Below are positions 1 through 14,295 of a DNA stretch of 64,000 nt, one piece after another. The first letter of the stretch is position 1, and each line of letters starts with the position of its first letter. The notes beneath the pieces were generated by a model. The model saw nothing but the letters and a program-made list of their open reading frames with translations. It searched no databases and was not told the DNA's origin. This DNA is from Myxococcales bacterium (GTDB lineage Bacteria > Myxococcota_A > UBA9042 > JABWCM01 > BTVJ01): NCBI GenBank assembly GCA_045863395.1, contig BTVJ01000025.1:1-64000 (forward strand). The letters run 5' to 3'. Position numbers and translations under genes: made by a program.

Positions 1-3000
1 GTCCACGCCGTCGCAGATCTCCAGCGCGCCGCTGTGGATCGCCTTGTCCAGAGGCTTGCAGTCGGTCACGTCCGGGTCACCGTCGTTGTCGTCGTCGGGA
101 TCGCAGTTGTTCCCGATGCCGTCACCGTCCGTGTCGGGGCCGCTGTCGTCCACCTTGCCGTTGCAGTCGTTGTCCTTGCCGTCGCACAGCTCGGGCGCCC
201 CGTGGTAGACGGTCTTGTCCAGCGGAGCGCAGTCCGTCGCGTCCGGGTCGCCGTCGTTGTCGTCGTCCGGGTCGCAGGCGTTGCCCTTGCCGTCCGAGTC
301 CGTATCGAGCTGGCCGGGGTTGTGGACCAGCGGACAGTTGTCCAGGTCGTCCACCACGCCGTCACCGTCGTCGTCCAGGTCGATGCAGTCCGACACCCCG
401 TCACCGTCCGTGTCCGGGAAGCCCTCGTCCACGAGGCCGTCGCAGTCGTCGTCGATGCCATTGCAGGCCTCCGTCGCCTTGGGGCTGATCGCCGGGTTCG
501 TCGGCGCGCAGTCCTCCGCGTCGGGCGAGCCGTCGTTGTCGTCGTCCGGGTCGCACGCGTCGCCCTTGCCGTCCGCGTCCGTGTCGAGCTGGCTCGCGTT
601 CGGAGCCAGCGGGCAGTTGTCCGCTGCGTCGGGGATCCCGTCGTTGTCGTCGTCCGGGTCGATGCAGTCAGCCATCAGGTCCCCGTCGGTGTTGGGGAAG
701 CCCTCGTCGACCTGTCCATCGCAGTTGTCGTCGATGCCGTTGCACAGCTCCACCGCGCCCGGGTAGATGGCGGCGTTGAACGGGGCGCAGTCCGCCTCAT
801 CGGGCGACCCGTCGTTGTCGTCATCCGGATCGCAGACATCGCCCTTGCCGTCCTTGTCGAAGTCGAGCTGCGGCGCGTTGGCCACGAGCGGGCAGTTGTC
901 CAAGGCGTCCAGGATCGTGTCGTTGTCGTCGTCCGGGTCGATGCAGTCTGCGAGCCCGTCCCCATCCGTGTCCGGGTAGCCCTCGTCGATGAGCCCGTCG
1001 CAGTCGTCGTCGAAGCCGTTGCACTGCTCCGACGCGCCATTGAAGACGGCCGGATTGTAGGGCGCGCAGTCGCTGCTGTCCGGGTCCCCGTCGTTGTCGT
1101 CGTCCGCGTCGCACGCGTCGCCCTGCTTGTCGCCGTCGGTGTCGCTCTGGTCGGCGTTCTTGATCAGCGGGCAGTTGTCGCTGCCGTCGGGGAGCCCGTC
1201 ATTGTCGTCGTCAGGATCGACGCAGTTCGCCAAGCCATCGCCGTCGGTGTCCAGGAACCCGTTGTCCTTGATGCCGTCACAGTCGTCGTCGAGGCCGTTG
1301 CACACCTCGACCGCGCCATGATGAATCGCGGGGTTCGCCGGCGCGCAGTCGGTCTCGTCCAGGTCGCCGTCGTTGTCGTCGTCCGGGTCGCAGGCGTCAC
1401 CGAACGCGTCTCCGTCGGTGTTGGTCTGCCCCGCATTGGGGACGTCGGGGCAGTTGTCCACACCGTTGGGCACCAGATCCCCGTCCCGGTCCGGGTCGAG
1501 GCAGTCGGGGATCCCGTCGCCGTCCATGTCGCCGAGGCCGTCATCGACGAGGCCATTGCAGTCGTCGTCGACCCCGTTGCACACCTCCTTGGCGCCCGTG
1601 AAGACGGCAGGGTTGTATGGCGCACAGTCCGTCTCATCCAGGTCACCGTCGTTGTCGTCGTCCGGGTCGCAGGCGTCGCCCGCTCCGTCGCCGTCGAAGT
1701 CGACCTGATCCGGGTTCCAGACGTCGAAGCAGTTGTCCGCGAAGTCGAACACCCCGTCGCCATCCGTGTCGTTGCCCGTGCATCCCTCCAGGCCGTTGTC
1801 GACGACTCCATCGCAGTCGTCGTCCATGCCATTGCACACCTCGACGGCCCCGTGATGGATCTTCGGGTTGAGCGGGCCGCAGTCGGTGAGGTCCGGGTCG
1901 CCGTCCCCGTCGTCGTCCTCGTCGCACGAGTCGCCGCCCCCGTCACCGTCCGAATCGATCTGGTCAGGGTTGCCGACCTTCGGACAGTTGTCGTGGATGT
2001 CCTGGATCCCGTCCCCGTCGTCGTCCTCGTCGACGCAGTCCGCGATACCGTCGCCATCCGCATCGGGGAAGCCCTCGTCCACCTCGCCGTTGCAGTTGTC
2101 GTCGGCGCCGTTGCACACCTCGGGCCCCCCGTTGTAGATGGCGGGGTTCGTGGGAGCGCAGTCCGAGAAGTCGGGGTCGCCGTCGTTGTCGTCGTCCATG
2201 TCGCACAGGTCGCCCTGACCGTCCCCGTCCGTGTCGTGCTGCCCCGGGTTGGCGACCAGCGGGCAGTTGTCCGCGATGTCCGGGATGCCGTCATTGTCGT
2301 CGTCGATGTCGGCGCAGTCGGCGATCCCGTCGCCGTCTGTGTCCTTGAAGCCCTCGTCCACCGCCCCATCGCAGTCGTCGTCCAGGCCGTTGCAGAGCTC
2401 CGGCGCCCCATGGAAGAGCTTCGGGTTCAGCGGAGCGCAGTCCGTGGCGTCCGGATCTCCGTCGTTGTCGTCGTCCGGATCGCAGGCGTCGCCAAGCGGG
2501 TCCGAATCCGAGTTCTTCTGATCCGGGTTGTGGACGTCCGGGCAGTTGTCGTAGACGTCCGGGATCCCGTCGCCGTCGTCGTCCGGGTCGATGCAATCCT
2601 TGAGCCCATCGCCGTCCGAGTCCTTGTCGAGCTCGTCGACCACACCGTCGCAGTTGTCGTCGATGCCGTTGCACTTCTCGGCCTGGCTCGGCCCCACGCT
2701 CGCGTTGAAGGGCGCGCAGTCCAGGATGTCCGGGTCGCCGTCGTTGTCGTCGTCCGGATCGCAGGCGTCGCCCGCCCCGTCGCCGTCGAAGTCCTTCTGG
2801 TTGACGTTGGCCACCAGCGGGCAGTTGTCGTTGCCATCCAGGATGCCGTCGTTGTCGTCGTCCGGGTCGATGCAGTCGGCGAGGCCGTCGCCGTCCGTGT
2901 CGGGGAAGCTCTCGTCGATCACGCCATTGCAGTTGTCATCGACGCCGTTGCAGACCTCCTGCGTGATCGACGAGATCGCCGGGTTCTTCGGCGCGCAGTC

Positions 3001-5526
3001 GGTCACGTCCGGATCGCCATCGTTGTCGTCGTCCGGGTCACAGGCGTCACCGAGCGGATCGGTGTCGCTGTTGGTCTGCTCCGGGTTCGAGACCAGCGGG
3101 CAGTTGTCCACGATGTCGAGGATCCCGTCGTTGTCGTCGTCCGGATCGCACGCGTCGCCCGCCCCATCGCCATCCGTGTCCGCCTGCAGCGGGTTCGGGG
3201 CCAGCGGACAGTTGTCGAGCGCGTCGGGCACCCCGTCGTTGTCGTCGTCCGGGTCGCACGCGTCACCCAGCCCGTCTTCGTCCGTGTCCTTCTGGGTCGG
3301 GTTCGGCACCTGCGTGCAGTTGTCGATGAGGTCGGGCACGCCGTCGCCATCCGAGTCCACGCCCGCGCAGTCGGCCTTGCCATCGCCGTCCAGGTCTGCG
3401 AAGCCCTCGTCGATCTGGCCGTTGCAGTTGTCGTCCACACCGTTGCACGCCTCGGGGGTCTTGGTCGAGACCTTCGGGTTCTTGGGCTCGCAGTCCGTCT
3501 CGTCCGGATCGCCGTCGTTGTCGTCGTCCGGGTCGCAGGCGTCACCCAGGAAGTCGTTGTCGCTGTTGGTCTGGTCCGGGTTGGCGATCAGAGGGCAGTT
3601 GTCCTGTCCGTCAGGGATCCCGTCGTTGTCGTCGTCCAGGTCCACGCAGTCCTTTGCGCCGTCGCCGTCGGTGTCCGGGAAGCCCTCGTCCACCTGGCCG
3701 TTGCAGTTGTCGTCCTTGCCGTTGCAGGCCTCCTCGTGCTTGCTGCTCACGGTCGGGTCGAGGGGCTTGCAGTCGGTGACGTCCGGGTCGGCGTCGCCGT
3801 CGTCGTCCGGGTCCACGCAGTCGGCGAAGCCGTCCTTGTCCGTGTCCGTGAAGCCCTCGTCGGCGGTGCCGTTGCAGTTGTTGTCCAGTCCGTCGCAGAT
3901 CTCCGACGCGCCTGGGTGGATCGTCGGGTTCTTTGGCGCGCAGTCGACCATATCCGGCGCGCCATCGTTGTCGTCGTCCGGGTCGCAGGCGTCGCCGAGC
4001 CCGTCGAGGTCGGTGTCCACCTGGTCCGGGTTCGCGGCGGTCGGGCAGTTGTCGTCCTCGTCGAGGAGGCCGTCGTTGTCGTCGTCCGGGTCGCAGACGT
4101 CGCCCAGGGCGTCGTTGTCGGCGTTGTCCTGCTTCGGGTTGAAGCTCAGCGGGCAGTTGTCGACGCTGTCGGGGATCCCGTCGCCATCGTCGTCTGGATC
4201 TTCGCAATCGTTGAGGCCGTCACCGTCCGTGTCGACGGCCCCGTCCTCGAGCTTGCCGTCGCAGTCGTTGTCCTTGTCGTCGCACAACTCTGGCGCGCCG
4301 TGGTACGTGAACGGGTCCAGCGGATCGCAGTCGGTGGTGTCCGGGTCGCCGTCACCGTCGTCGTCCGGGTCGACGCAATCCGCCACGCCGTCCTTGTCCG
4401 TGTCGAGGAAGCCCTCGTCCGTGTCGCCGTCGCAGTCGTCGTCGAGGCCGTTGCACTGCTCCTCCGAGATCGCGACGTCGCCCGTGCAGACGAGGCCCAC
4501 GCCGCCAGCGCCGCACTGCCACGTGCCGTTCGGGCAGGAGTCGGGGTCGTCGCCATCGCACGGGGTGCCCACGAGCGGAAAGTCCTCGTCCATCTGACCG
4601 TCGCAGTCGTTGTCCTTGCCATCGCAGAGCTCCGGCGTCGGGAAGGCGGCGTTGCAGACCAGCCCGCCCGCCCCCTTGCACTCGTAGGTCCCCGCGCAGA
4701 TCCCATGCTGCGACTCGACCGTGCAGGCCCCGCCGCCCGTCCCCTCGTCCGTCTCCCCGTCGCAGTCGTTGTCGACGCCGTCACAGCCCTCGTTGGCCGG
4801 GACGGGCGCGTCGCACGCGCCCCACCCCGTCACACTCTTGCAGACCTGCTGGCCACCGCACGTCCCGATGGCGTTCGTGATCTCGCAGCCTTGGACGACG
4901 CCGTCGATCTTGATGGTGCACGGGCACTGGTCGCCGTCGGGGATGCACTGCTTCGACGAGCCGCCCCCTTCTGCGACCGGCACGTCCTTGCAACTGAAGC
5001 CCGAGGGGCAGGAGCCCGTGACCACGCAGTCCTTGCCGCAGAAGTGACCCCGGACGCCCAGGTCGATGCACCGGTCCACCTTGGTCCCGCAGTCGTCGTC
5101 GCTGGTGCAGGGCTGACAGAGGCTCGTGATCTCGGGAACGCACAGGAAGACCACGTCGGGCCCGAACCCGGTGACCGCGCTGCAGTCCCAACCCTTGGGG
5201 CAGTTCTCGACGCACACCTCGGTGCACACCTTTGAGGTGGGCCCGTCGACGCAGTAGCCGCTCTCGCAGTCCGCATTGCTGTTGCAGGGCTTGCCGGTCT
5301 CGCCCCAGAGCGTGTCGCCCTCCGGACCCGCGTCCTCGGGACCCGTCTCCGGCAGGGTCGCGGTGTCCTTGGTCGGGACGTCCGTGCCACCCCCGGAGTC
5401 GAACCCGGTGTCCTCCCCGAGATCGCCGCCTCCCGTGGTGGCGTCGTCGTCGGGGCAGCCGACGAGGAGGACCGCGGCGAGGGCCAAGGCGAGGGAAGAG
5501 CGAGACACGAGGCGTCGGGCGTGCAT
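1..5526 (-). CDS. Giant Ca-binding surface lipoprotein with alternating thrombospondin type-3 (DxDxDGxxDxxDNCP) and MopE-like (GAxExCxGxDDDCDGxxDE) repeats; 3' end lies outside the window
   Basis: Manual translation of the reverse strand. ATG at 5526 with GGAGG 6 nt upstream. N-terminus MHARRLVSRSSLALALAAVLLVGC is a lipobox. Bases 60..1 read CKPLDKAIHSGALEICDGVD in the same frame. It is absent from the ORF track, consistent with no stop codon in the window. Confidence 0.9.
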   Translation of the reverse strand, partial: MHARRLVSRSSLALALAAVLLVGCPDDDATTGGGDLGEDTGFDSGGGTDVPTKDTATLPETGPEDAGPEGDTLWGETGKPCNSNADCESGYCVDGPTSKVCTEVCVENCPKGWDCSAVTGFGPDVVFLCVPEITSLCQPCTSDDDCGTKVDRCIDLGVRGHFCGKDCVVTGSCPSGFSCKDVPVAEGGGSSKQCIPDGDQCPCTIKIDGVVQGCEITNAIGTCGGQQVCKSVTGWGACDAPVPANEGCDGVDNDCDGETDEGTGGGACTVESQHGICAGTYECKGAGGLVCNAAFPTPELCDGKDNDCDGQMDEDFPLVGTPCDGDDPDSCPNGTWQCGAGGVGLVCTGDVAISEEQCNGLDDDCDGDTDEGFLDTDKDGVADCVDPDDDGDGDPDTTDCDPLDPFTYHGAPELCDDKDNDCDGKLEDGAVDTDGDGLNDCEDPDDDGDGIPDSVDNCPLSFNPKQDNADNDALGDVCDPDDDNDGLLDEDDNCPTAANPDQVDTDLDGLGDACDPDDDNDGAPDMVDCAPKNPTIHPGASEICDGLDNNCNGTADEGFTDTDKDGFADCVDPDDDGDADPDVTDCKPLDPTVSSKHEEACNGKDDNCNGQVDEGFPDTDGDGAKDCVDLDDDNDGIPDGQDNCPLIANPDQTNSDNDFLGDACDPDDDNDGDPDETDCEPKNPKVSTKTPEACNGVDDNCNGQIDEGFADLDGDGKADCAGVDSDGDGVPDLIDNCTQVPNPTQKDTDEDGLGDACDPDDDNDGVPDALDNCPLAPNPLQADTDGDGAGDACDPDDDNDGILDIVDNCPLVSNPEQTNSDTDPLGDACDPDDDNDGDPDVTDCAPKNPAISSITQEVCNGVDDNCNGVIDESFPDTDGDGLADCIDPDDDNDGILDGNDNCPLVANVNQKDFDGDGAGDACDPDDDNDGDPDILDCAPFNASVGPSQAEKCNGIDDNCDGVVDELDKDSDGDGLKDCIDPDDDGDGIPDVYDNCPDVHNPDQKNSDSDPLGDACDPDDDNDGDPDATDCAPLNPKLFHGAPELCNGLDDDCDGAVDEGFKDTDGDGIADCADIDDDNDGIPDIADNCPLVANPGQHDTDGDGQGDLCDMDDDNDGDPDFSDCAPTNPAIYNGGPEVCNGADDNCNGEVDEGFPDADGDGIADCVDEDDDGDGIQDIHDNCPKVGNPDQIDSDGDGGGDSCDEDDDGDGDPDLTDCGPLNPKIHHGAVEVCNGMDDDCDGVVDNGLEGCTGNDTDGDGVFDFADNCFDVWNPDQVDFDGDGAGDACDPDDDNDGDLDETDCAPYNPAVFTGAKEVCNGVDDDCNGLVDDGLGDMDGDGIPDCLDPDRDGDLVPNGVDNCPDVPNAGQTNTDGDAFGDACDPDDDNDGDLDETDCAPANPAIHHGAVEVCNGLDDDCDGIKDNGFLDTDGDGLANCVDPDDDNDGLPDGSDNCPLIKNADQSDTDGDKQGDACDADDDNDGDPDSSDCAPYNPAVFNGASEQCNGFDDDCDGLIDEGYPDTDGDGLADCIDPDDDNDTILDALDNCPLVANAPQLDFDKDGKGDVCDPDDDNDGSPDEADCAPFNAAIYPGAVELCNGIDDNCDGQVDEGFPNTDGDLMADCIDPDDDNDGIPDAADNCPLAPNASQLDTDADGKGDACDPDDDNDGSPDAEDCAPTNPAISPKATEACNGIDDDCDGLVDEGFPDTDGDGVSDCIDLDDDGDGVVDDLDNCPLVHNPGQLDTDSDGKGNACDPDDDNDGDPDATDCAPLDKTVYHGAPELCDGKDNDCNGKVDDSGPDTDGDGIGNNCDPDDDNDGDPDVTDCKPLDKAIHSGALEICDGVD
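333..3110 (-). repeat. 279-bp (93-aa) coding super-repeat of TSP3 plus MopE-like units
   Basis: The DNC anchor (cagttgtc on +) recurs at about 333, 612, 891, 1170, 1449 and 1728. After one shorter (about 255-bp) unit it recurs at 1984, 2263, 2542, 2821 and 3100. Confidence 0.85.
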
Positions 5527-5655
5527 GGGAGACCTCCGCGGGAGACCCGGGACGGATCGAGAGCAATGTTGCCGGTAGAGCATAGCGGGCAGCAGCCAAG
5601 GGGAGCAACCGGAACTCCCATTGCGCCCTGTCACCACGCGGCGTAGGGTACGCGC

Positions 5656-6492
5656 ATGGGCCGCCTTTCCGCGCTGATCGTCGCCTTGCTGCTCACGGCT
5701 TCAGGTGCGGAGGCCGGCCACAGGGTGTTCCGGGTCATCGACGGCGACACCCTCGTCCTCGGCAACGGCGACAACGTGCGGCTGCGCGGTGTGAACTCGC
5801 CCGAGCTTGGTGAGGCCGCGGCCGACGCAGCCACGGACTTCGCCCGGTCATTCGCCGAGGGAAGGGAAGCCGAGCTGGACCACGGCAAGGGGGTCGACGG
5901 GCAGCCGCTCCCGCCGGCGCGTGACGGCTACGGGCGGCTCCTGGCGGACGTCGTGGTCGACGGGCAGAGCTTGAGCGAGGCGCTGGTTCGCGAGGGCCAC
6001 GCCCACGTGTTCGTCATCCCGCCGACGCCGCTGGACATGGAGCGGCGGCTCGTGGAGCTGCAGGTGCAGGCGCGGCGCCGCAAGAAGGGCATCTGGTCGA
6101 CCCCGCGCTTCCAGGGGGCGCTGCACATCACGAGCATGCACGCGGACGCCCCCGGGGACGACCGGGAGAACCTGAACGGCGAGTACCTGCGCATCGCCAA
6201 CGTGGGCACGAGGCCGGCGGCACTCGGGGGCGTCACGCTGCAGAACCACCGCGGCATGCGCCTCACCTTCCCCGACGCGACCCTCCCGGTGGGACACACG
6301 GTCATGGTCTTCACCGGCACCGGCGAGGACCGCCTGGATTCAGCGCTGGGCCCCCTCCAGGTCTACTGGCGCCTTACCGAGCCCGCCTGGGGCAACCGGG
6401 GCGACAGGGCGATCCTCCGTTCAGCCCGGGGGCGCATCGAGGACGACCTGGAGTTCAAGCCCAAGCGACCCTTCGGGGGGCGCAAGCACTGA
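5656..6492 (+). CDS. Secreted thermonuclease (SNase) fused to a lamin-tail domain
   Basis: Signal peptide. SNase motifs VIDGDT, VRLRGVNSPE, DGYGRLLA and ARRRKKGIW. C-terminal LTD motifs NGEYLRIAN and WGNRGDRAIL. Confidence 0.85.
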   Translation: MGRLSALIVALLLTASGAEAGHRVFRVIDGDTLVLGNGDNVRLRGVNSPELGEAAADAATDFARSFAEGREAELDHGKGVDGQPLPPARDGYGRLLADVVVDGQSLSEALVREGHAHVFVIPPTPLDMERRLVELQVQARRRKKGIWSTPRFQGALHITSMHADAPGDDRENLNGEYLRIANVGTRPAALGGVTLQNHRGMRLTFPDATLPVGHTVMVFTGTGEDRLDSALGPLQVYWRLTEPAWGNRGDRAILRSARGRIEDDLEFKPKRPFGGRKH

Positions 6493-6499
6493 TTTGGTG

Positions 6500-7681
6500 T
6501 CAAGGAGCGAGCTGGCGGATCAGCTCGTCCACGTGAGGTTTGGGCAGCGCGCCCTCCGCCTTGTGCCAGTTCACGAAGAAGGTGGGCGTCGATGCGACCG
6601 CGAGGCGGGCCGCCAGGGCGATGTCCGCCTGGATCCGCGCCGCGACATCGTCGGAGCCCATGCACACCTCGAACGCTCCCCGGTCCATGCCCAGACGCCC
6701 CGCGTACTCGAGCAGATCACGCGGGCTGAGCTCCCCCTGGTTGTGGAACAGGACGTCGGCGTACTGCCAGAACTTGCCGCTGCGGCGGGCGCACTCGGCC
6801 GCCCGCGCAGCAGCACACGCATGGGGGTGCATGGGGCTCGACACGAGGGGGTTGCACGAGCTGTCCAGCGGGAAGTGGGCGAAGACCATGCGCACCTCAC
6901 TGGGACGCTCGGCAGCCACGGCCTCCAGCGTATCCCACAGCTTGCGGCAGTAGGGGCACTGGAAGTCACTGAACTCGACGATGACCACCTTGGCGTCGGC
7001 GGGGCCGCGGTAGGGTCCGTCGGGCACCTCGAAGGGCTCGACGGCCTTCCTGTTGACGATGTCCGCAGTAACGGACGCGACCTCACTGCGGTGCTCGGAG
7101 GCCATGCCGGCCTCCATGGTGCCGAACACCAGGTGGCCCACCCCGAAGGCGCCCGCCACCGACACGGCGAACACCGGAAGCGCAGGGTCGCCGAGCGGCC
7201 GTCGGAGCGCCCCGATCACGTCCGCCAGGGCGCGATGCCAGGGGCGGTCCAGAGCGATCCACGCCGCAACGAGGATCCCGGCGTTGATCCCATACCAGAT
7301 GACGCAGAAGGGGCAGAAGCTGCCCTCCGCAATCGAGGCCGCCGCCATCAGCAGCGACACTGCTCCCCCCCCGATGCCCAGCCAGAAGAGGAGCGGCAGC
7401 GCCACGGCGACGCGGCCAGCCAGCGCAAGCAGGGCGGCTGCGGCGATGCCAGTATCCACCGCGACGCCGACGAAGGCGACGGGCACACCCGCGATGGCGC
7501 TCCAGCGGCTCTTGACGGCGACATCGCAGCCCTTGGAGGAGAGCTGGTTGCACGTGCCGCTGTCGTAGGTCTGCTTGACCTCGAACTGCACGTGCAGGCG
7601 GGTGAGGTAGACGCCGTCGGCGACCCCCGCCACAGCGAGCAGCACGAGCACGACCAGGGCGAAGCGTCTAGAGGTCTTCAT
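6500..7681 (-). CDS. Vitamin K epoxide reductase (VKOR) - DsbA thioredoxin fusion
   Basis: Start MKTSRRF at 7681 with GGAGG upstream. VKOR loop C-x7-C..V..S.WS.IAGVP and CPFC. DsbA motifs FSDFQCPYC, HFPL and STPTF. Confidence 0.88.
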   Translation of the reverse strand: MKTSRRFALVVLVLLAVAGVADGVYLTRLHVQFEVKQTYDSGTCNQLSSKGCDVAVKSRWSAIAGVPVAFVGVAVDTGIAAAALLALAGRVAVALPLLFWLGIGGGAVSLLMAAASIAEGSFCPFCVIWYGINAGILVAAWIALDRPWHRALADVIGALRRPLGDPALPVFAVSVAGAFGVGHLVFGTMEAGMASEHRSEVASVTADIVNRKAVEPFEVPDGPYRGPADAKVVIVEFSDFQCPYCRKLWDTLEAVAAERPSEVRMVFAHFPLDSSCNPLVSSPMHPHACAAARAAECARRSGKFWQYADVLFHNQGELSPRDLLEYAGRLGMDRGAFEVCMGSDDVAARIQADIALAARLAVASTPTFFVNWHKAEGALPKPHVDELIRQLAP

Positions 7682-7798
7682 GGGGGCCTTCCTCCGCGAG
7701 CACCGACCGGAGGGACCCGCGGCTGCTCCATTTGCCACAGCACGCGCCGACGCGCAAGGCATGAGGTCACCGCCAGGAGCGAGGGTGGGAAAAAGCGC

Positions 7799-7828
7799 TT
7801 GCACGCAAAGCGACCGCTTCACTAGAGT
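7799..7828 (+). promoter_or_regulatory. Putative sigma70-type promoter of the deiminase gene
   Basis: TTGCAC-N18-TAGAGT about 80 nt upstream of ATG 7909. Confidence 0.35.
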
Positions 7829-7908
7829 GCTTTCACCTGTCGCTGGCGGCGCCCGTGCGCCCGAACCTCATTGATGAGGCCCGACCCCCGATCCTCTGGA
7901 GTGTGACC

Positions 7909-10347
7909 ATGAAGAGACGCATCCTGCCCTGGCTGAGCCTGCTGCTGGCCATCCCCGCGGGCTGCGCCGATCAGAGCGAAGGGCCGAGCGCCCCCGCTCC
8001 GACCGGCGGCGAAGTGACCGAGGCGCGCCCTGACTTCTCGACCCTGCTCCCCGCGTTCGAGACCGAGGCGGAGAAGAAGGTCCCCGGCAAGGCGGACGCC
8101 GCCGACGACTACCGCAAGGCCAACCCCCAGTGGTACTCCATCACCCAGCCACCGGCGGGCAAGACGTACCGGGCACTCACGGAGTGGGAGCCCCAGCAGA
8201 TCCTGCTGACCACCTACTCCGACGGCGTGAAGGGGAACAAGAACGTCCGCCAGACCATCGTCGACATCGTCTACCACACGATCGTCGACGCGCACTCCAA
8301 GGCGGGCGTGATCGTCGCGAGCCAGGCCACGGCCAACGACTTCACGGCGGGGCTGAAGGCCAAGGGCGCCAGCGACGCGATGATCACGGACAAGATCCAG
8401 TACATCATCATGCCGAACGACAGCATCTGGCTGATCGACTACGGCCCCGTTCCCGTCGTCGAGGCGGAGACCGGCACCCTCGCCTTCGGCGACTTCCGCT
8501 ACTACCATAATCGGTACCTGGACGACGCGATCCCGACCCGCCTTGCCCACGAGACGTTCGGCGTGTCGGCCTACCGGATGCCCATCAGCACCGAGGGCGG
8601 CACGTTCCAGGCCGACGGCGTGGGCGTCTGCTACACGGCCGAGCGCGCTCTCCAGTACTCCGGCATGACCAACGCCGAGTTCCTCAAGGTGTGGAAGGAC
8701 TACCTTTCCTGCGACCAGCTCGTGGTCATGAAGGACATCACGGACGACGGCACGGGACACATCGACATGTTCTTCAAGCTCGCGGCGCCGGACCTGACGC
8801 TGCTCGGCGAGTACCAGGACAAGTACGTGGTGGACGCCACCAACAAGAAGCGCATGGACGACAACAAGACCCTCCTGGAGGCGCTGGCGCTCCCCGAGGG
8901 CAAGACCATGAAGGTGGTCCGCGCGCCGTTCCCCTCGAAGAAGAACAACGTGCCCCGGACCTTCCTCAACTCGACCCTCATCAATGGGGTCAACCTGTGG
9001 CCGGTCTACTCGGATGCGAAGGACGCCGAGGCCGAGGCCCTCGCGGCATGGCAGGAGGTCCTGCCGGACTGGAACCACGTGGGCATCCTCTGCGACGACA
9101 TCGCGCAGTGGAGCGGCACGGTACACTGCGTCACCCGCACCATCCCGGAGGGCAACCTTCAGAAGTGGATCCCGGACGGCCAGTGCAACGGCGGTCAGTG
9201 CACCCCCGCCAGCGCGGATGGGTATGACGGCGCCTGCTTCGGCACGAGCAAGGACCAGTGCTGGGGCCCTGACTGGGTGTGCGAGTGCCCCCTCTGCACT
9301 CCCGACGGCAAGTGCTACGCCCCGACCTGCGAGGGCCACTGCGGCTCCGACCAGCCCACGGACGCAGGTTGCTACTGCGACGCCGCGTGTGTCCAGTACG
9401 GCGACTGCTGCGGCGACTACCAGCAGGTCTGTGGCGGCGGCGGCGGCGAGGGCTGCGAGGGCAAGTGTGGATCGGATCAGCCCACGGCCGCTGGCTGCTA
9501 TTGTGATGACTCCTGCGTCCAGTACGGCGACTGCTGCTCCGACTACGCGACCCTCTGCGGCGGGGAGCCCACGGGGTGCGGCGGCGTGACCTACGAGGGG
9601 TGCTGCGCGGAGAACGGCACCAAGCTCCAGTACTGCGAGAACGACAAGCTCACGGTGCTCAACTGCGCTGAGAACGGCTGTGGCTGGGACGGGACCAACG
9701 GCTTCTACGACTGCGGCAAGGAAGGCGAGGACCCGTCAGGCGAGAACCCGCGGGTCTGCACCGAGTGTGTTCCATCCTGCGGGGACGCCAAGTGCGGCGA
9801 CGACGGCTGCGGCGGAAGCTGCGGCTCCTGTGGTCCCAATGAGTACTGCGACGCCGGCGCGTGCAAGGCGGGCCAGGACCCCCGCGGCAAGAGCTGCGCG
9901 GGCAACTGTGGCGGCCAGGCCCCGTCGGGATGCTTCTGCGACGCAGAGTGCCTCGGGCGCGGCGACTGCTGCCCGGACGTGTGCGACTCCTGCGCGGATC
10001 TGTGCGAGCCGGTGGTCGGTGAGGACGTCGGCGGCGGCACGGACGCTGGAGGTGGCGGCGGTGCTGACGCGGGCGGCGGGGGCGGTAGCGCGGACACCGG
10101 CGGTGGCGGCAGCGGCGCGGACACCGGCGGCGGCGGGGGCGGGGGCGCAGACGCCGGCGCTGGCGCCGACACCGCTGGCGGCAGCTCCGACACCGGCGCT
10201 GGTGGCGGCGGCGGCGGCGGAAGCGGTACGGGTGGCGGTGACGGTGGCGGTGGGTGCTCGACCAGCAGCTCGACCTCCCCTGCCCCCGCGGCGCTCCTCG
10301 CCCTGCTGCTCCTCGTCGGCGCGTCGATACGGCGGCGCCGCGTCTGA
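7909..10347 (+). CDS. Surface agmatine/peptidylarginine deiminase family protein with somatomedin-B-like Cys repeats, Gly-rich linker and MYXO-CTERM
   Basis: Lipobox LLLAIPAGC. Deiminase motifs EWEP, WLIDYGP, EGG, GHID, FLN and GTVHCVT. Three CxGxCG..CYCDxxCxxxGDCC repeats. C-terminus GGGCS, hydrophobic helix, RRRR. Confidence 0.85.
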   Translation: MKRRILPWLSLLLAIPAGCADQSEGPSAPAPTGGEVTEARPDFSTLLPAFETEAEKKVPGKADAADDYRKANPQWYSITQPPAGKTYRALTEWEPQQILLTTYSDGVKGNKNVRQTIVDIVYHTIVDAHSKAGVIVASQATANDFTAGLKAKGASDAMITDKIQYIIMPNDSIWLIDYGPVPVVEAETGTLAFGDFRYYHNRYLDDAIPTRLAHETFGVSAYRMPISTEGGTFQADGVGVCYTAERALQYSGMTNAEFLKVWKDYLSCDQLVVMKDITDDGTGHIDMFFKLAAPDLTLLGEYQDKYVVDATNKKRMDDNKTLLEALALPEGKTMKVVRAPFPSKKNNVPRTFLNSTLINGVNLWPVYSDAKDAEAEALAAWQEVLPDWNHVGILCDDIAQWSGTVHCVTRTIPEGNLQKWIPDGQCNGGQCTPASADGYDGACFGTSKDQCWGPDWVCECPLCTPDGKCYAPTCEGHCGSDQPTDAGCYCDAACVQYGDCCGDYQQVCGGGGGEGCEGKCGSDQPTAAGCYCDDSCVQYGDCCSDYATLCGGEPTGCGGVTYEGCCAENGTKLQYCENDKLTVLNCAENGCGWDGTNGFYDCGKEGEDPSGENPRVCTECVPSCGDAKCGDDGCGGSCGSCGPNEYCDAGACKAGQDPRGKSCAGNCGGQAPSGCFCDAECLGRGDCCPDVCDSCADLCEPVVGEDVGGGTDAGGGGGADAGGGGGSADTGGGGSGADTGGGGGGGADAGAGADTAGGSSDTGAGGGGGGGSGTGGGDGGGGCSTSSSTSPAPAALLALLLLVGASIRRRRV

Positions 10348-10601
10348 GCCTGAGTCTTGGGGGAGGGTTCCACTCGGGCGCCCTCTCCTCTCAGCCACTT
10401 CCAATCCCCCCACCAAGTCCGTCGGCAGGCGGCGGCCGGATCGCGGGCGCGGTCGGCGCCGGGGGCGGCGGCGCCGCCGTCGCCGCGCAAGGAGCCGAGC
10501 GACGCTCCAGCCACCCGGGCTCACGGACCAACGCCTTCCCCGTTTACAATTCGAGCGGCATGCCGATGATTCGTGCAGGGCTTGCCACGAAGTGAGCGTG
10601 C

Positions 10602-11633
10602 ATGACCGGCCTGTCCGTGCTGCAGATGGACCAGCGACGCCGAGACCGCCACATCGGGACGGTCATCGGCGGTCGCTGGCTGATCCGCTCCCGCCTCGGA
10701 GGGGGCGGTGAAGGGGCGGTCTACCTCGCCGCGGCCCTCACCGATGACGCCCCTGTCGCGGTGAAGGTGCGGTTCGGACCGCCGGTGCCCGAGACGGAGG
10801 CCGGGGGGCTCCCCGCCGACCCCCTGGCCCGAGAGCACGCCATCCTGGGCGCCATCGCGGGCCCCCACTTTCCGCGGGCAGTGGAGCTCGGACATCTCGC
10901 CGACGACGAGCCCTACCTGGTGCGCGAGTTCATCGACGGACCGACCCTTCATGAGGTGATCCGGACCGAGGCACCCATGGCGCTCCCGCGCGCGATGATG
11001 GTCCTTCGCCGCCTGTGTGATGCAGCCCTCGCACTGCACGCCGCCGGCTACTGGCACCGGGACATCAAGCCGGCGAACGTGATCCTCTGCGGCCCTTTGG
11101 CGGACGCGGCGTCCTTGCGCCTGCTGGACTACGGCTCGTCCTGGCCTGTCGGCGCGCCGACCCCGGACGACGCCTCGCTGGTGCAGCTCCCCTCGGGGAC
11201 TGCGGCGTACATGGCTCCCGAAGTGGCTGCCGGCGGAACCGTCGGTGGTGAGGCGGCGGACCTCTATGCCATCGCGGCCGTCGCCTACGAGCTCCTCACC
11301 GGGAAGCACATCCTCGGCAAGGCCGTGGACTCGCCAACGGCGGCCCACGAGTACGTCCTCGGCCGGGGCCCCATCCCGCGCACACCCATCGCGCCCCTGA
11401 GGCCCGATCTGCCCTCCGAGCTTGCCTTCGGCATCGAGCGGGCCCTGAGCCGCGATCCGATGGACCGCGGCAGCTCGGTGGCCGAGCTGCGCAAGCTGCT
11501 GGGACCCGTCCCACACTCTGCGTGGGAGGACACATGGGACCCTCGGCACCGGGTCGCTGCGCCGCTGTCGCGCTGGGAGCAGCTCCTGGCGCGCCTCCGC
11601 AAGCTCTGGCGAGGATCAGGCCCTGCGCGGTGA
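10602..11633 (+). CDS. Soluble Ser/Thr protein kinase
   Basis: LGGGGEGAVY, VAVK, HRDIKPAN, LLDYG and GTAAYMAPE. No transmembrane helix seen. Confidence 0.85.
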   Translation: MTGLSVLQMDQRRRDRHIGTVIGGRWLIRSRLGGGGEGAVYLAAALTDDAPVAVKVRFGPPVPETEAGGLPADPLAREHAILGAIAGPHFPRAVELGHLADDEPYLVREFIDGPTLHEVIRTEAPMALPRAMMVLRRLCDAALALHAAGYWHRDIKPANVILCGPLADAASLRLLDYGSSWPVGAPTPDDASLVQLPSGTAAYMAPEVAAGGTVGGEAADLYAIAAVAYELLTGKHILGKAVDSPTAAHEYVLGRGPIPRTPIAPLRPDLPSELAFGIERALSRDPMDRGSSVAELRKLLGPVPHSAWEDTWDPRHRVAAPLSRWEQLLARLRKLWRGSGPAR

Positions 11634-12929
11634 CCACCGGCGCAGCACGAGCCCAGCGACCCCGGCTACGAAGACGACCCCCAGCACCGCCACCCCGACC
11701 AGGGCCACCCGGGGTCCCGCCGCATCGGGGGCCCCGCCTGCCCCGGTGGCCCCGAGGAACGCCACCGCGACGGCGGCCAGCACCCCGAGGGCTGCCGCCG
11801 CGGCCCCGGCGATGAGGCCCGCGCCAGCAAGCAGCCGACGGTGACGCCGAAGCGCCCAGCCGATTCGAGACAGCAGACCGGGGGGGCGGATGCTGATCGG
11901 GTCTCCCTCGGCGAAGGCGTCGAGATCGTCAGCCAGCTCCCCCGCCGACTTGTAGCGACCCCCCGGCTCCTTCGCCATGCAGCGCCGGCAGATGGCGTCG
12001 AGCGCGTCCGGAGCCGACCCACCCTTTGGGAGCGCCAGCGAGGGGAGCGGCTCCGTGACGGCCCTCCGCAGCGTATCCAGGTGCGTCGCCCCGAAGAACG
12101 GCGGCCGCGCCGCCACCAGGTGGTAGAGCACCGCGCCAAGGGCCCAGATGTCGGTCCAGGGCCCGAACCGGTCGGGCTGGCACCGGATCTGCTCCGGCGC
12201 CATATAGTACGGGGTCCCGATGGCCACCCCCACCGCGGTCACGGGCGTCTCGCTCGACAGCTCCCGGGCGATGCCGAAGTCGACCACGTGAGGCTCGCCG
12301 GCCTCGTCCACGAGCACGTTGTCGGGCTTGAGGTCCCGATGGAGCACGCCCCGCTGATGGGCGTAGTCGATGGCGCGCGCCACCTTGGCGAGCACGCGCG
12401 CCGCCCGCACTGGCGTGAGCTGCCCGTCCAGGAACAGCTTGGAGAGGGGCGCGCCCCGGATGAAGTCCATGACGAGGTAGTGCCGCCCATCGGCGGAGAC
12501 CCCGCTGTCGGTCACGGGGCAGATGTTCGGGTGGCTGAGCCGCGCCTGGAGGGTCATCTCCCGCTGGAAGCGCCGCAGCGAGGCCTCCTCGGCCTGATGC
12601 AGCACCTTGACGGCCACGACCTTGTGCAATCGGCGGTGAAAGGCCTTGTAGACCGTCCCCATGCCACCGCTGCCCATGGTGTCGAGGATCTGATACTCGT
12701 CCAGCAGCGTGCTCGGCGCCAGGTCGCCCGAGCGCGCCTGCGCCACGTCCAGCATGACCGTACGCTCGGCGGACGCGAGGCTGGCGGCGTCCGGGTGCGT
12801 ATCGCCTGCAGAGAACATCACCGTCGGCGCGTCGGCCAGCAAGGGCAGCGCCGCGCCACACGCGCCACAGCTCCGCGCCCCGGCCGGCGCCGGTGTCCCG
12901 CAGCGCGAGCAGGCGCTCACGGGAACCAC
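11616..12929 (-). CDS. Membrane Ser/Thr protein kinase with N-terminal zinc ribbon (start uncertain)
   Basis: CSRC..CGAC ribbon; GSGGMGTVY, VAVK, HRDLKPDN, DFG and GTPYYMAPE; two C-terminal hydrophobic helices. GTG start at 12929 or 12920 chosen to avoid overlapping the acyl-CoA dehydrogenase. Confidence 0.85.
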   Translation of the reverse strand: MVPVSACSRCGTPAPAGARSCGACGAALPLLADAPTVMFSAGDTHPDAASLASAERTVMLDVAQARSGDLAPSTLLDEYQILDTMGSGGMGTVYKAFHRRLHKVVAVKVLHQAEEASLRRFQREMTLQARLSHPNICPVTDSGVSADGRHYLVMDFIRGAPLSKLFLDGQLTPVRAARVLAKVARAIDYAHQRGVLHRDLKPDNVLVDEAGEPHVVDFGIARELSSETPVTAVGVAIGTPYYMAPEQIRCQPDRFGPWTDIWALGAVLYHLVAARPPFFGATHLDTLRRAVTEPLPSLALPKGGSAPDALDAICRRCMAKEPGGRYKSAGELADDLDAFAEGDPISIRPPGLLSRIGWALRRHRRLLAGAGLIAGAAAAALGVLAAVAVAFLGATGAGGAPDAAGPRVALVGVAVLGVVFVAGVAGLVLRRWSPRRA

Positions 12930-13128
12930 GCATTCGCGGCTGCCGGCCTGGGAGTCTTCGCGTCTGCGCTCCGCACCGTGCTCACACCTCACCTCCGTCG
13001 GGCGATTATGAAGAGCGCTGGTCCACCGCGTCAACGCGGCTTGCAAACGAGGCCACGCTTGCCGCACCATCGCGGCGGAGTACACCCCGGCGCGAGGTGA
13101 CGCGCCAGAGCCGCTGCGAGGAGACACC

Positions 13129-14295
13129 ATGGCGATTCCGCTGACCAAAGGCCACTACCCGTGGTTCGACGACGGCCACACCCTGTTCCGCAAGTCGGTC
13201 CGAGAGTGGGCCATGAAGGAGCTCTACCCACACGTCGAGGAGTGGGAGCGCGACCGCCTGTTCCCCCGGTGGGTCTTCGAGCAGGCCGGCAAGCTCGGCT
13301 TCCTGGGCATCCGCGCCCCGGAGGAGTACTCCGGCAGCGGCCTCGACTGGTGGTACACCACGTGCTGGGCCGAGGAGCTCGTCAACTGCGGCATGGCGGG
13401 CCTGACCATGGGCCTGCTGGTCCAGTCGGACATGGCGACGCCGGTCATCGGCGAATTCGGCACGCCGGAGCAGAAGCGCGAGTTCTGGGAGCCGGCCATC
13501 AAGGGGGAGCGCATCGCGGCCCTGGGCATCTCGGAGCCAGGGGTCGGCTCGGACGTCGCCAACCTGGCGACCACGGCCCGCCGGGACGGCGACGACTACG
13601 TGATCAACGGCGCCAAGACGTTCATCACCAACGGGACCCGCGCCGACTTCATCACCCTCGCGGTGCGCACCGGCACGGCCCCAGGCTACGGCAGCATCAG
13701 CCTGGTCCTCTTCCCGACGGACACCAAGGGCTTCCAGGTCTCGAAGAAGCTCGAGAAGGTGGGCAACCACTGCTCGGACACGGCGGAGCTCTTCTTCGAG
13801 GACTGCCGCATCCCCCGCCGCTACCTGCTCGGGCAAGAGAACATGGGCTTCATGCACATCATGCAGAACTTCCAGGGGGAGCGGCTGGTCGGGGCGCTGT
13901 CCGCCACCTCCGGCGCGACGCGCATGATCGAGCGCACCCTCGACTACTGCACTGACCGCAAGGCCTTCGGCCGTCCGCTCATCAAGTTCCAGGTCAACAA
14001 GCACAAGGTGGTCGACCTGCTGACCATGGTGGAGGCTGGCCGCCAGCTCGCCTACCGCGCCGTGGACCTCGTCAACCGCAAGAAGGACGCGACCCGCGAG
14101 ATCAGCATGGCCAAGCTGTTCTGCGGCCAGACGGCCTGCGACGTGGCGGACGCCTGCCTCCAGCTCCACGGCGGCTGGGGCTACATGGCGGAGTACGAGA
14201 TCTCGCGCTACTGGAGAGACACGCGGCTCATCACCATCGGCGGCGGCACCAACGAGATCATGAAGGAGATCATCGCCAAGACCTTCGGGCTCTGA
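13129..14295 (+). CDS. Acyl-CoA dehydrogenase
   Basis: ISEPGVGSD, INGAKTFITNG, FQGERL, RKAFGRPL, QLHGGWGY and IGGGTNEIMK. GAGGAG RBS. Confidence 0.95.
   Translation: MAIPLTKGHYPWFDDGHTLFRKSVREWAMKELYPHVEEWERDRLFPRWVFEQAGKLGFLGIRAPEEYSGSGLDWWYTTCWAEELVNCGMAGLTMGLLVQSDMATPVIGEFGTPEQKREFWEPAIKGERIAALGISEPGVGSDVANLATTARRDGDDYVINGAKTFITNGTRADFITLAVRTGTAPGYGSISLVLFPTDTKGFQVSKKLEKVGNHCSDTAELFFEDCRIPRRYLLGQENMGFMHIMQNFQGERLVGALSATSGATRMIERTLDYCTDRKAFGRPLIKFQVNKHKVVDLLTMVEAGRQLAYRAVDLVNRKKDATREISMAKLFCGQTACDVADACLQLHGGWGYMAEYEISRYWRDTRLITIGGGTNEIMKEIIAKTFGL

Follow-up and report, generated by a model that had tools for sequence, protein, structure and literature searches.

A clade of predicted surface deiminases in uncultured Myxococcota, related to Porphyromonas PPAD and carrying a distinct specificity signature

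The window analysed here is a 64,000-nt stretch from a Myxococcales bacterium (GCA_045863395.1, contig BTVJ01000025.1, positions 1 to 64,000, forward strand), in which an open reading frame (ORF) at 7909–10347 (+) encodes an 812-residue protein, P0001, that joins a pentein deiminase domain to a cysteine-rich stalk. Sequence comparisons place this deiminase in a predicted surface-associated clade of uncultured Myxococcota that is related to PPAD, the exported peptidylarginine deiminase of Porphyromonas gingivalis, and that has a specificity signature of its own. Our favoured reading, to which we assign a probability of roughly 0.45, is that P0001 is a lipid-anchored surface deiminase of the PPAD branch that would convert arginine within peptides or proteins outside the cell, or similar N-acylated arginine, to citrulline and ammonia, with no need for a free C-terminal carboxylate. 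A first-pass annotation of the window had proposed an extracellular citrullinating or guanidino-modifying enzyme on a binding stalk; the lipobox, MYXO-CTERM tail, active-site loops and absence of aguB described below all point to a PPAD-type enzyme that is exported and anchored at the surface, and away from an agmatine deiminase of the cytoplasm.

The hidden Markov model search suggested by this annotation returned both expected families above cut-off in the 812-residue protein: PAD_porph (PF04371) over residues 90–413 (127.7 bits versus 25) and Somatomedin_B (PF01033) on three stretches (63 bits versus 23.1). Alignments with PPAD and other Protein Data Bank (PDB) chains extend the PPAD-type catalytic domain to residues 60–414 (8086–9150, +), which we predict to adopt a five-bladed alpha/beta propeller fold. 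The fusion of this domain to the stalk is not an assembly artefact, since P0002, whose catalytic domain is 79% identical, shares the whole set of modules and a single RNA-library contig from a related strain covers 7843–10147 unbroken. A catalytic-domain search recovered 236 proteins among 7080 candidates of 446–1421 residues, and the best 120 of these relatives, 35–79% identical, are the homologs to which the counts below refer.

Using the PPAD numbering of Goulas 2015 (PMC4487231), the alignment pairs W174 with W127, I176 with R129, D177 with D130, H200 with R152, R202 with R154, G231 with G182, G281 with Y233, H284 with H236, D286 with D238, M287 with C239, N354 with N297 and C407 with C351. 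The Cys-His-Asn triad and the two guanidinium-binding aspartates are therefore complete (C407, H284, N354, D177 and D286), in agreement with the intact catalytic set noted earlier. W174, D177, D286, H284, N354 and R202 are invariant in all 120 homologs, and C407 is present in 119. On the DNA, W174-L-I176-D177 (W127-T-R129-D130 in PPAD) lies at 8428–8439, H200 and R202 in an entrance loop of PPAD length at 8506–8514, the Michaelis loop D280-G281-T-G-H284-I-D286 at 8746–8766, the triad residue N354 at 8968–8970, and C407 with R410 at 9127–9138 (all +). When a profile of the clade was compared with the PDB, PPAD ranked first (118.7 bits), followed by 1xkn (117.9 bits) and other agmatine deiminases (66–85 bits); PPAD and agmatine-deiminase-type chains were the only pentein matches. 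Both entrance loops align without gaps to PPAD, whereas 1xkn has insertions there; the Michaelis loop likewise has its PPAD length. As a single sequence, P0001 matches PPAD at only 57 bits, in an alignment that stops at residue 414.

The residues that line the entrance of the site carry the specificity argument. In the accessible text of Goulas 2015 (PMC4487231), agmatine deiminases have closed sites, and PPAD R154 contacts the upstream peptide carbonyl and also one carboxylate oxygen. The same text describes R152 as an essential carboxylate clamp, the R152A mutant being inactive, and states that a substrate continuing beyond its C-terminal Arg would clash with R152 and Y233. At the R152 position, residue 200, arginine occurs in none of the 120 homologs, which carry H, P, K, Y, Q, A, G or F; at the Y233 position, residue 281, 116 homologs have Gly, four have Ala and none has Tyr. 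Because the loops are of PPAD length, R202 is kept, Arg is missing at 200 and Gly occupies 281, we infer a substrate site that is open for peptide-bound arginine and lacks the C-terminal clamp. In such a site R202, like PPAD R154, would hold the upstream peptide carbonyl, and the lack of Arg at 200 together with Gly281 would let the substrate chain continue beyond the arginine. Following PPAD chemistry, attack by C407 would give a thiouronium intermediate, with release of ammonia and then hydrolysis to citrulline. As to purpose, we would guess that protein of prey or floc is tapped for ammonium, or that cationic peptides are neutralised.

P0001 is not the housekeeping agmatine deiminase, since the genome (G000) has a separate aguA-aguB pair and the loci of the clade lack aguB. 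The pair (L001:587–2499, contig C6) is of the canonical kind and comprises genes for a 341-residue AguA and an aguB-like amidase, the stop codon of one overlapping the start of the other. An aguB-like gene is present at 10/10 AguA loci, one of them that of the query genome itself, and at 0/78 clade loci (75 loci with flanks of up to 6 kb, two paralog regions and the whole 64-kb window). The initial remark that no putrescine-pathway genes are adjacent thus extends, for aguB-like genes, to the entire window. P0001 scored 65 bits with the AguA equivalog TIGR03380, whose cut-off of 381.8 the genome's own AguA also fails to reach (209.7 bits). The N-[AG]-W-G lid loop found in all ten AguA rows is absent from P0001, which reads Y-Y-H-N-R-Y-L-D-D at that position.

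For phylogeny, 263 profile matches were reduced to 161 by dropping 15 incomplete rows and thinning close homologs to about one in four, and to 156 by removing five degenerate rows. FastTree split the ten AguA rows from the 146 others by a branch with 100% support. Among the 146, the R154 equivalent is present in 145 and the Tyr of PPAD Y233 in one; AguA lacks this entrance Arg. P0233, which stood in for PPAD (the two match at 204 bits across the catalytic and immunoglobulin (Ig)-like domains, and P0233 has R-P-R, E-Y-x-x-H and a type IX secretion system (T9SS) tail), grouped among the 146 on the query's side, and a 35-row IQ-TREE run agreed (AguA 100, PPAD-like group 99). The active-site loops and the long AguA branch support a probable position of P0001 on the PPAD branch; the direction of change along it is not established.

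Several observations weigh against an open site on the PPAD branch. An approximately unbiased (AU) test did not reject the core clade and AguA as one side of the tree (p = 0.295), and the trees held the proxy P0233 in place of PPAD, had no outside root and were built from rows gathered by similarity to the query. In the phylogenetic comparison with AguA and PPAD that the first-pass annotation had suggested, AguA separated at 100% and PPAD was represented by proxy. The proposed openness of the site is itself read from loop lengths. In the accessible text of Montgomery 2016 (PMC4893104), PPAD R152A and R154A are still active, on C-terminal Arg only; since R152A is thus either C-terminal-specific or inactive, the loss of R152 alone gives no endo activity. 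Y233 was intact in both mutants as described there, and a literature search found no tests of the Y233 position. Furthermore, D280, four residues before the catalytic His (the His-4 position), occupies the place of the agmatine amine-binding Asp, and an acid is kept here in all 120 homologs; 1xkn, with its AguA-type loop insertions, scores level with PPAD.

The last two points would suit a surface enzyme that deiminates small guanidines: agmatine, N-acyl-agmatine or other arginine derivatives that are decarboxylated or amidated. In such an enzyme D280 would hold the amine end or R202 the acyl carbonyl, and the missing R152 would reflect a substrate without a carboxylate. In the accessible text on the plant agmatine deiminase MtAIH (PMC6447857), Asp220 at His-4 binds the agmatine amine, and conservation of an acid at position 280 extends to 133/146 of the wider relatives; E-G-G is likewise shared with AguA where PPAD has T-G-G, and the AU result would also fit such an enzyme. 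PPAD, however, is also acidic at His-4 (E232; Thr in a solved variant), and the loop register at this position is sensitive to the method, HMMER and MAFFT placing the AguA insertion differently. With the AguA lid absent, an entrance Arg that is invariant in the clade and absent from AguA, and no aguB neighbour, we consider a small-guanidine substrate rather unlikely.

The Montgomery mutants, still C-terminal-specific, would suit an enzyme that had kept the exo specificity of PPAD or that acts on free arginine, R202 alone binding the carboxylate of C-terminal or free arginine set loose by neighbouring surface proteases. PPAD R154 does hold one carboxylate oxygen, PPAD can use free Arg according to the same accessible text (PMC4893104), and the His or Lys found at position 200 in 83/120 homologs could partly stand in for R152. 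Against this, a clamp that is essential in PPAD corresponds here to a freely variable position, the Y233 equivalent is absent from 120/120 homologs, and the locus comparison revealed no conserved protease neighbour. We judge this alternative unlikely, and retain the endo-acting surface deiminase as the favoured reading.

The Ile that replaces Arg in the W-x-R-D motif, already noticed in the first-pass annotation, lies at PPAD R129 and proved to be common to the whole clade: among the 120 homologs, residue 176 is Ile in 116, Val in two, Met in two and never Arg. Of the 156 rows in the alignment, 70 lack Arg at 176, and every one of these carries Arg or Lys three residues after the catalytic Cys (position 410); 81 of the 86 with Arg at 176 do not, and 410 is the column most strongly associated with 176. 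R410 is present in 120/120 close homologs, and PPAD pairs R129 with H354. R410 thus probably compensates for the Arg lost at 176. Phylogenetic proof of the exchange was sought and set aside: the trait changes three times on the tree, and a sign test on the two to three independent pairs gave no significance (p = 0.5).

The same Ile might instead mark a change to other pentein chemistry, such as that of an amidinotransferase or methylarginine hydrolase, or to an adhesin that binds arginine peptides with little turnover. W-x-I-D appears to be a derived trait of the clade, Met replaces the gatekeeper C239 in 119/120 homologs, and MYXO-CTERM paralogs without the catalytic His and Cys retain a Y-x-x-x-R-x-x-D-D loop. 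Yet the full catalytic set is kept in 119/120 homologs, the unbroken association with a basic residue at 410 (70/70) looks compensatory, and the PDB pentein matches comprise PPAD and agmatine-deiminase-type chains only. We regard such a change of function as improbable.

The export signals are those expected of a surface protein. A rule-based test identified a lipoprotein-type signal peptide at 7909–7965 (+) that ends in a lipobox Cys, Cys19 (P-A-G-C), overlooked in the earlier annotation; such a lipobox is present in 113/120 closest homologs and in 0/120 control stretches. The MYXO-CTERM signal claimed at the other end is well supported: the segment at 10243–10341 (+), with Cys motif, transmembrane helix and RRRR, scores 32.1 bits with TIGR03901 (cut-off 20), joint best among 18 matches in the genome, and 16.6 bits with TIGR03382 (cut-off 15.85). 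A MYXO-CTERM-like tail occurs in 90/120 homologs and the combination with a lipobox in 85/120, so that members of the family may be lipidated at both ends. The tripartite tail is that of known Myxococcota surface proteins (TraA and MepA, with the myxosortase MrtX), from which the deiminase family differs by its added N-terminal lipobox. Pfam and TIGR scans found no T9SS domain in P0001. In M. xanthus, according to the accessible text of Guo 2025 (PMC11980579), most MYXO-CTERM proteins are predicted adhesins or hydrolases that type II secretion delivers to the surface. On that model, export of the deiminase by Sec would be followed by lipidation at Cys19 and/or the MYXO-CTERM Cys, then by myxosortase cleavage and type II delivery to the surface. 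A MrtX-like gene at G000:C1:375835–376887 remains under its family cut-off (112.7 + 26 bits in two pieces versus 180). A G-K-A-D motif was considered as a general sorting signal and dropped, being too rare to support that role (4/515 predicted lipoproteins versus 15/4615 other ORFs, and two in a control window).

Between the catalytic domain and the tail lies the stalk (all coordinates on the + strand). Straight after the deiminase domain, where PPAD has its Ig-like domain, a family-specific Cys module at 9178–9288 gave no Pfam match; its C387, C392, C404 and C412 (numbering of alignment A2) are invariant in 100 rows. It is followed by somatomedin-B (SMB) modules 1 (9328–9432, 44.4 bits) and 2 (9454–9558, 43.6 bits), whose eight cysteines match those of the ENPP1 and EndoU SMB domains and which align as a tandem pair with ENPP1 SMB1-SMB2 (E = 2.2e-9). 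An unnamed Cys module of C-G-G-V-T-Y-E-G-C-C type (9577–9759; pattern in 47/120 homologs) and a single C-G-x-D-G-C-G-G-S-C-G-x-C repeat (9766–9864; pattern in 67/120 homologs, with up to 15 copies) come next, the latter being frequent in other ORFs of this genome. SMB module 3 (9895–9993) is more divergent; a third Pfam stretch and a pattern match define it, and it lies outside the genome-wide matches at E ≤ 0.001. A flexible linker rich in Gly, Asp, Ala and Thr (10030–10242) leads to the tail. Pfam and repeat comparison thus agree with the initial count of three SMB-like modules, two of them 126 bp apart, and with the further Cys modules described alongside. Modules 1 and 2 share 88/120 nt and 29/40 residues, an identity that makes theirs an old duplication; of the codons in which they differ, 12 are synonymous and 11 non-synonymous. 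In fold comparisons, the Atlas neighbours of the model carry SMB domains at TM scores of 0.21–0.38 over a multi-module stretch, and the segment at residues 552–660, which covers the unnamed module, has weak look-alikes in other secreted Myxococcota hydrolases, all with TM < 0.5; an Atlas feature search of the Cys modules gave no usable match, only unnamed Myxococcota clusters below 0.8.

The first-pass annotation had presented the SMB modules as a special eukaryote-like fusion, a view that did not survive comparison with the rest of the genome and phylum. SMB is generic here: this genome has 24 matches, spread over 13 ORFs that include two deiminases, and SMB occurs in 77/301 genomes of the phylum and 0/14 control genomes, many members of the class reaching the ceiling of the scoring, 23 matches. 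Only 24/120 deiminase homologs carry it by pattern, and 15 by precomputed Pfam assignment; in 22 deiminase-family proteins scanned, the modules of other homologs comprise other Cys repeats, beta-propeller, FGE-sulfatase, P or dockerin domains. Other SMB-bearing ORFs of this genome (contigs C27, C2, C58, C16, C42, C85 and C70) look, by eye, like a CotH kinase with a C-type lectin, giant Cys-repeat proteins and pure repeat proteins. SMB is therefore one of several interchangeable Cys-rich stalk modules across the lineage, and routine in this class. The SMB domains of ENPP1-3, EndoU and vitronectin (PF01033) have an eight-Cys spacing like that of the deiminase modules, and differ in that SMB in these bacteria is mobile between stalks, a genome of the class having up to 23 matches or more. 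A variable spacer or adhesin is the best reading of the stalk, its Cys modules, SMB included, presumably disulfide-bonded. A literature search with limited coverage of subscription journals found no account of SMB in Myxococcota. The result for the fusion is mainly deflationary: the SMB modules are the least special part of the deiminase.

A profile (A1) built from 22 members matched 48/301 phylum genomes at E ≤ 1e-60, a threshold that also admits more distant W-x-R-D relatives; 39/58 genomes of the window's class and 9/243 elsewhere account for these, with kin among them that are not independent. At E ≤ 0.001, 36/41 close genomes match, plain AguA included in the count. All 75 titled loci, drawn from the best 80 of 447 stretches, are from metagenome-assembled genomes, most of which bear the label Myxococcales, Myxococcota or Deltaproteobacteria. 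Databases label members of the family "agmatine/peptidylarginine deiminase", and our literature search, limited as above, found no description of the clade. The accessible text of Cummings 2021 (PMC8826395) does state that pPAD-type genes are commoner than thought and distinct from PADIs.

The query genome carries three long paralogs, P0001 included, and one short AguA. One intact paralog (G000:C14:136738–139308; L003, L124) is 57% identical in the catalytic domain, has two SMB modules and is cut off by the contig end; the other (G000:C33:65746–68142; L004, L125) is 46% identical and has no SMB. Five catalytically dead paralogs with a MYXO-CTERM-like tail were found in other genomes (L108, L111, L112, L118 and L119, at G039:C68, G034:C74, G029:C655, G011:C2 and G024:C154, respectively); they have lost W174, H284, N354 and C407 and keep a Y/F-x-x-x-R/K-x-x-D-D entrance loop, and are possibly pseudo-enzyme receptors for arginine peptides. 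Outside the class, L120–L123 (G198, a single-contig genome, G108, G136 and G221) are lipoproteins of 540–573 residues that retain W-x-R-D and the R154 equivalent and lack those of R152 and Y233; at the C-terminus they look, by eye, like P0161 and P0186, two proteins that bear a proprotein-convertase P domain. A PPAD-like subgroup (P0203, P0219, P0227, P0233 and P0241) has R-P-R, corresponding to R152 and R154, with the Tyr in P0233 only; its members are candidate C-terminal citrullinating enzymes outside Porphyromonas. Two deiminase domains occur in one chain in P0121 and at G228:C2:193706–197281, and tandem copies in several genomes of family f7. In a subclade around P0067, P0081 and P0112, an insertion of about 60–120 residues separates the triad Asn segment from the catalytic Cys.

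The genomic neighbourhood is not conserved. An all-against-all comparison of ORFs from the 75 loci and the window found lineage-limited synteny only (largest cluster, 21 loci), and the window is in none of the 30 clusters reported, in a sample where many loci are shortened by contig ends. Divergent from the deiminase gene, at 6500–7822 (−), lies a VKOR-thioredoxin/DsbA fusion gene that could serve disulfide formation in Cys-rich surface proteins, a pairing seen in 0/77 other loci; a neighbouring SNase gene is likewise found in 0/77. Farther upstream, at 1–5700 (−), a frame of at least 1900 codons that runs off the window start has 12 TSP_3 and 16 Cu-binding_MopE stretches. Directly downstream are two convergent Ser/Thr kinase genes, 10602–11633 (+) and 11616–13148 (−), with overlapping 3' ends. 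The deiminase gene has a GGAG at 7898–7901, 7 nt ahead of its ATG. A sigma-70 scan found no site upstream of the gene and one downstream, at 10543; a TTGCAC...TAGAGT pair seen by eye at 7799–7828 fell below the scan threshold and is not claimed as a promoter.

RNA-library contigs from four studies of sludge and wastewater (runs X1, X4, X7 and X14) cover the gene and start at 7843–7850, a weak hint of a transcript start about 60 nt upstream of the ATG and no proof of expression. Eleven of 20 RNA runs, X14 among them, hold fewer than half of the sampled words. Contig depth peaks over the gene in 4/4 runs, but this was rejected as a ranking of expression, the runs having been chosen with the gene and represented by contigs only, with DNA carry-over possible.

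Compared with known systems, the deiminase is closest in kind to PPAD (4yt9/4ytb, 5ak7; PF04371), likewise an exported, surface-associated pentein deiminase, with which it shares the equivalents of W127, D130, R154, G182, H236, D238, N297 and C351, the loop lengths and a similar N-terminal segment before the propeller. It differs in lacking R152 and Y233 and in four further replacements (R129 by Ile, H354 by Arg, C239 by Met and T180 by Glu); a lipobox and MYXO-CTERM take the place of the T9SS tail, and the Ig-like domain gives way to Cys-rich modules. With AguA (TIGR03380; 2jer, 3hvm, 6nib, and also 1xkn) it shares the Pfam family, catalytic set, E-G-G and acid at His-4; unlike AguA, it is predicted to be exported, is multidomain, and has neither lid loop nor aguB neighbour. 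The predicted mode, action on internal arginine, is that of animal PAD2 and PAD4 and of bacterial PADIs (cyanobacterial, and the citrulassin PAD), none of which appeared when the profile was run against the PDB at E ≤ 1. PAD4 has a small residue, S468, at the Y233 position in the accessible text of Goulas 2015 (PMC4487231), and keeps two arginines, R372 and R374, where the clade has one; PADs form a separate lineage in the accessible text of PMC8826395.

Taken at its broadest, the proposal is that uncultured Myxococcota of one class display multi-copy surface endo-peptidylarginine deiminases of the PPAD branch, lipid-anchored at both ends, that would citrullinate internal arginines in proteins of prey, competitors or matrix and in cationic peptides, a picture that we put forward as doubtful but worth stating. 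PPAD is commonly regarded as an oddity of Porphyromonas, and what is known of endo-acting citrullination comes mainly from PADIs, a separate lineage. Were the proposal true, the C-terminal specificity conferred on PPAD by R152 and Y233 would be a minority, possibly derived, state of a larger environmental family, and the dead paralogs would act as arginine-peptide receptors. A PPAD scaffold without the C-terminal clamp offers a natural test of exo versus endo specificity in penteins. If internal arginine is used, the enzyme might provide a small citrullinating reagent, calcium-independent by analogy with PPAD, and protein citrullination may be an extracellular tool of environmental myxobacteria.

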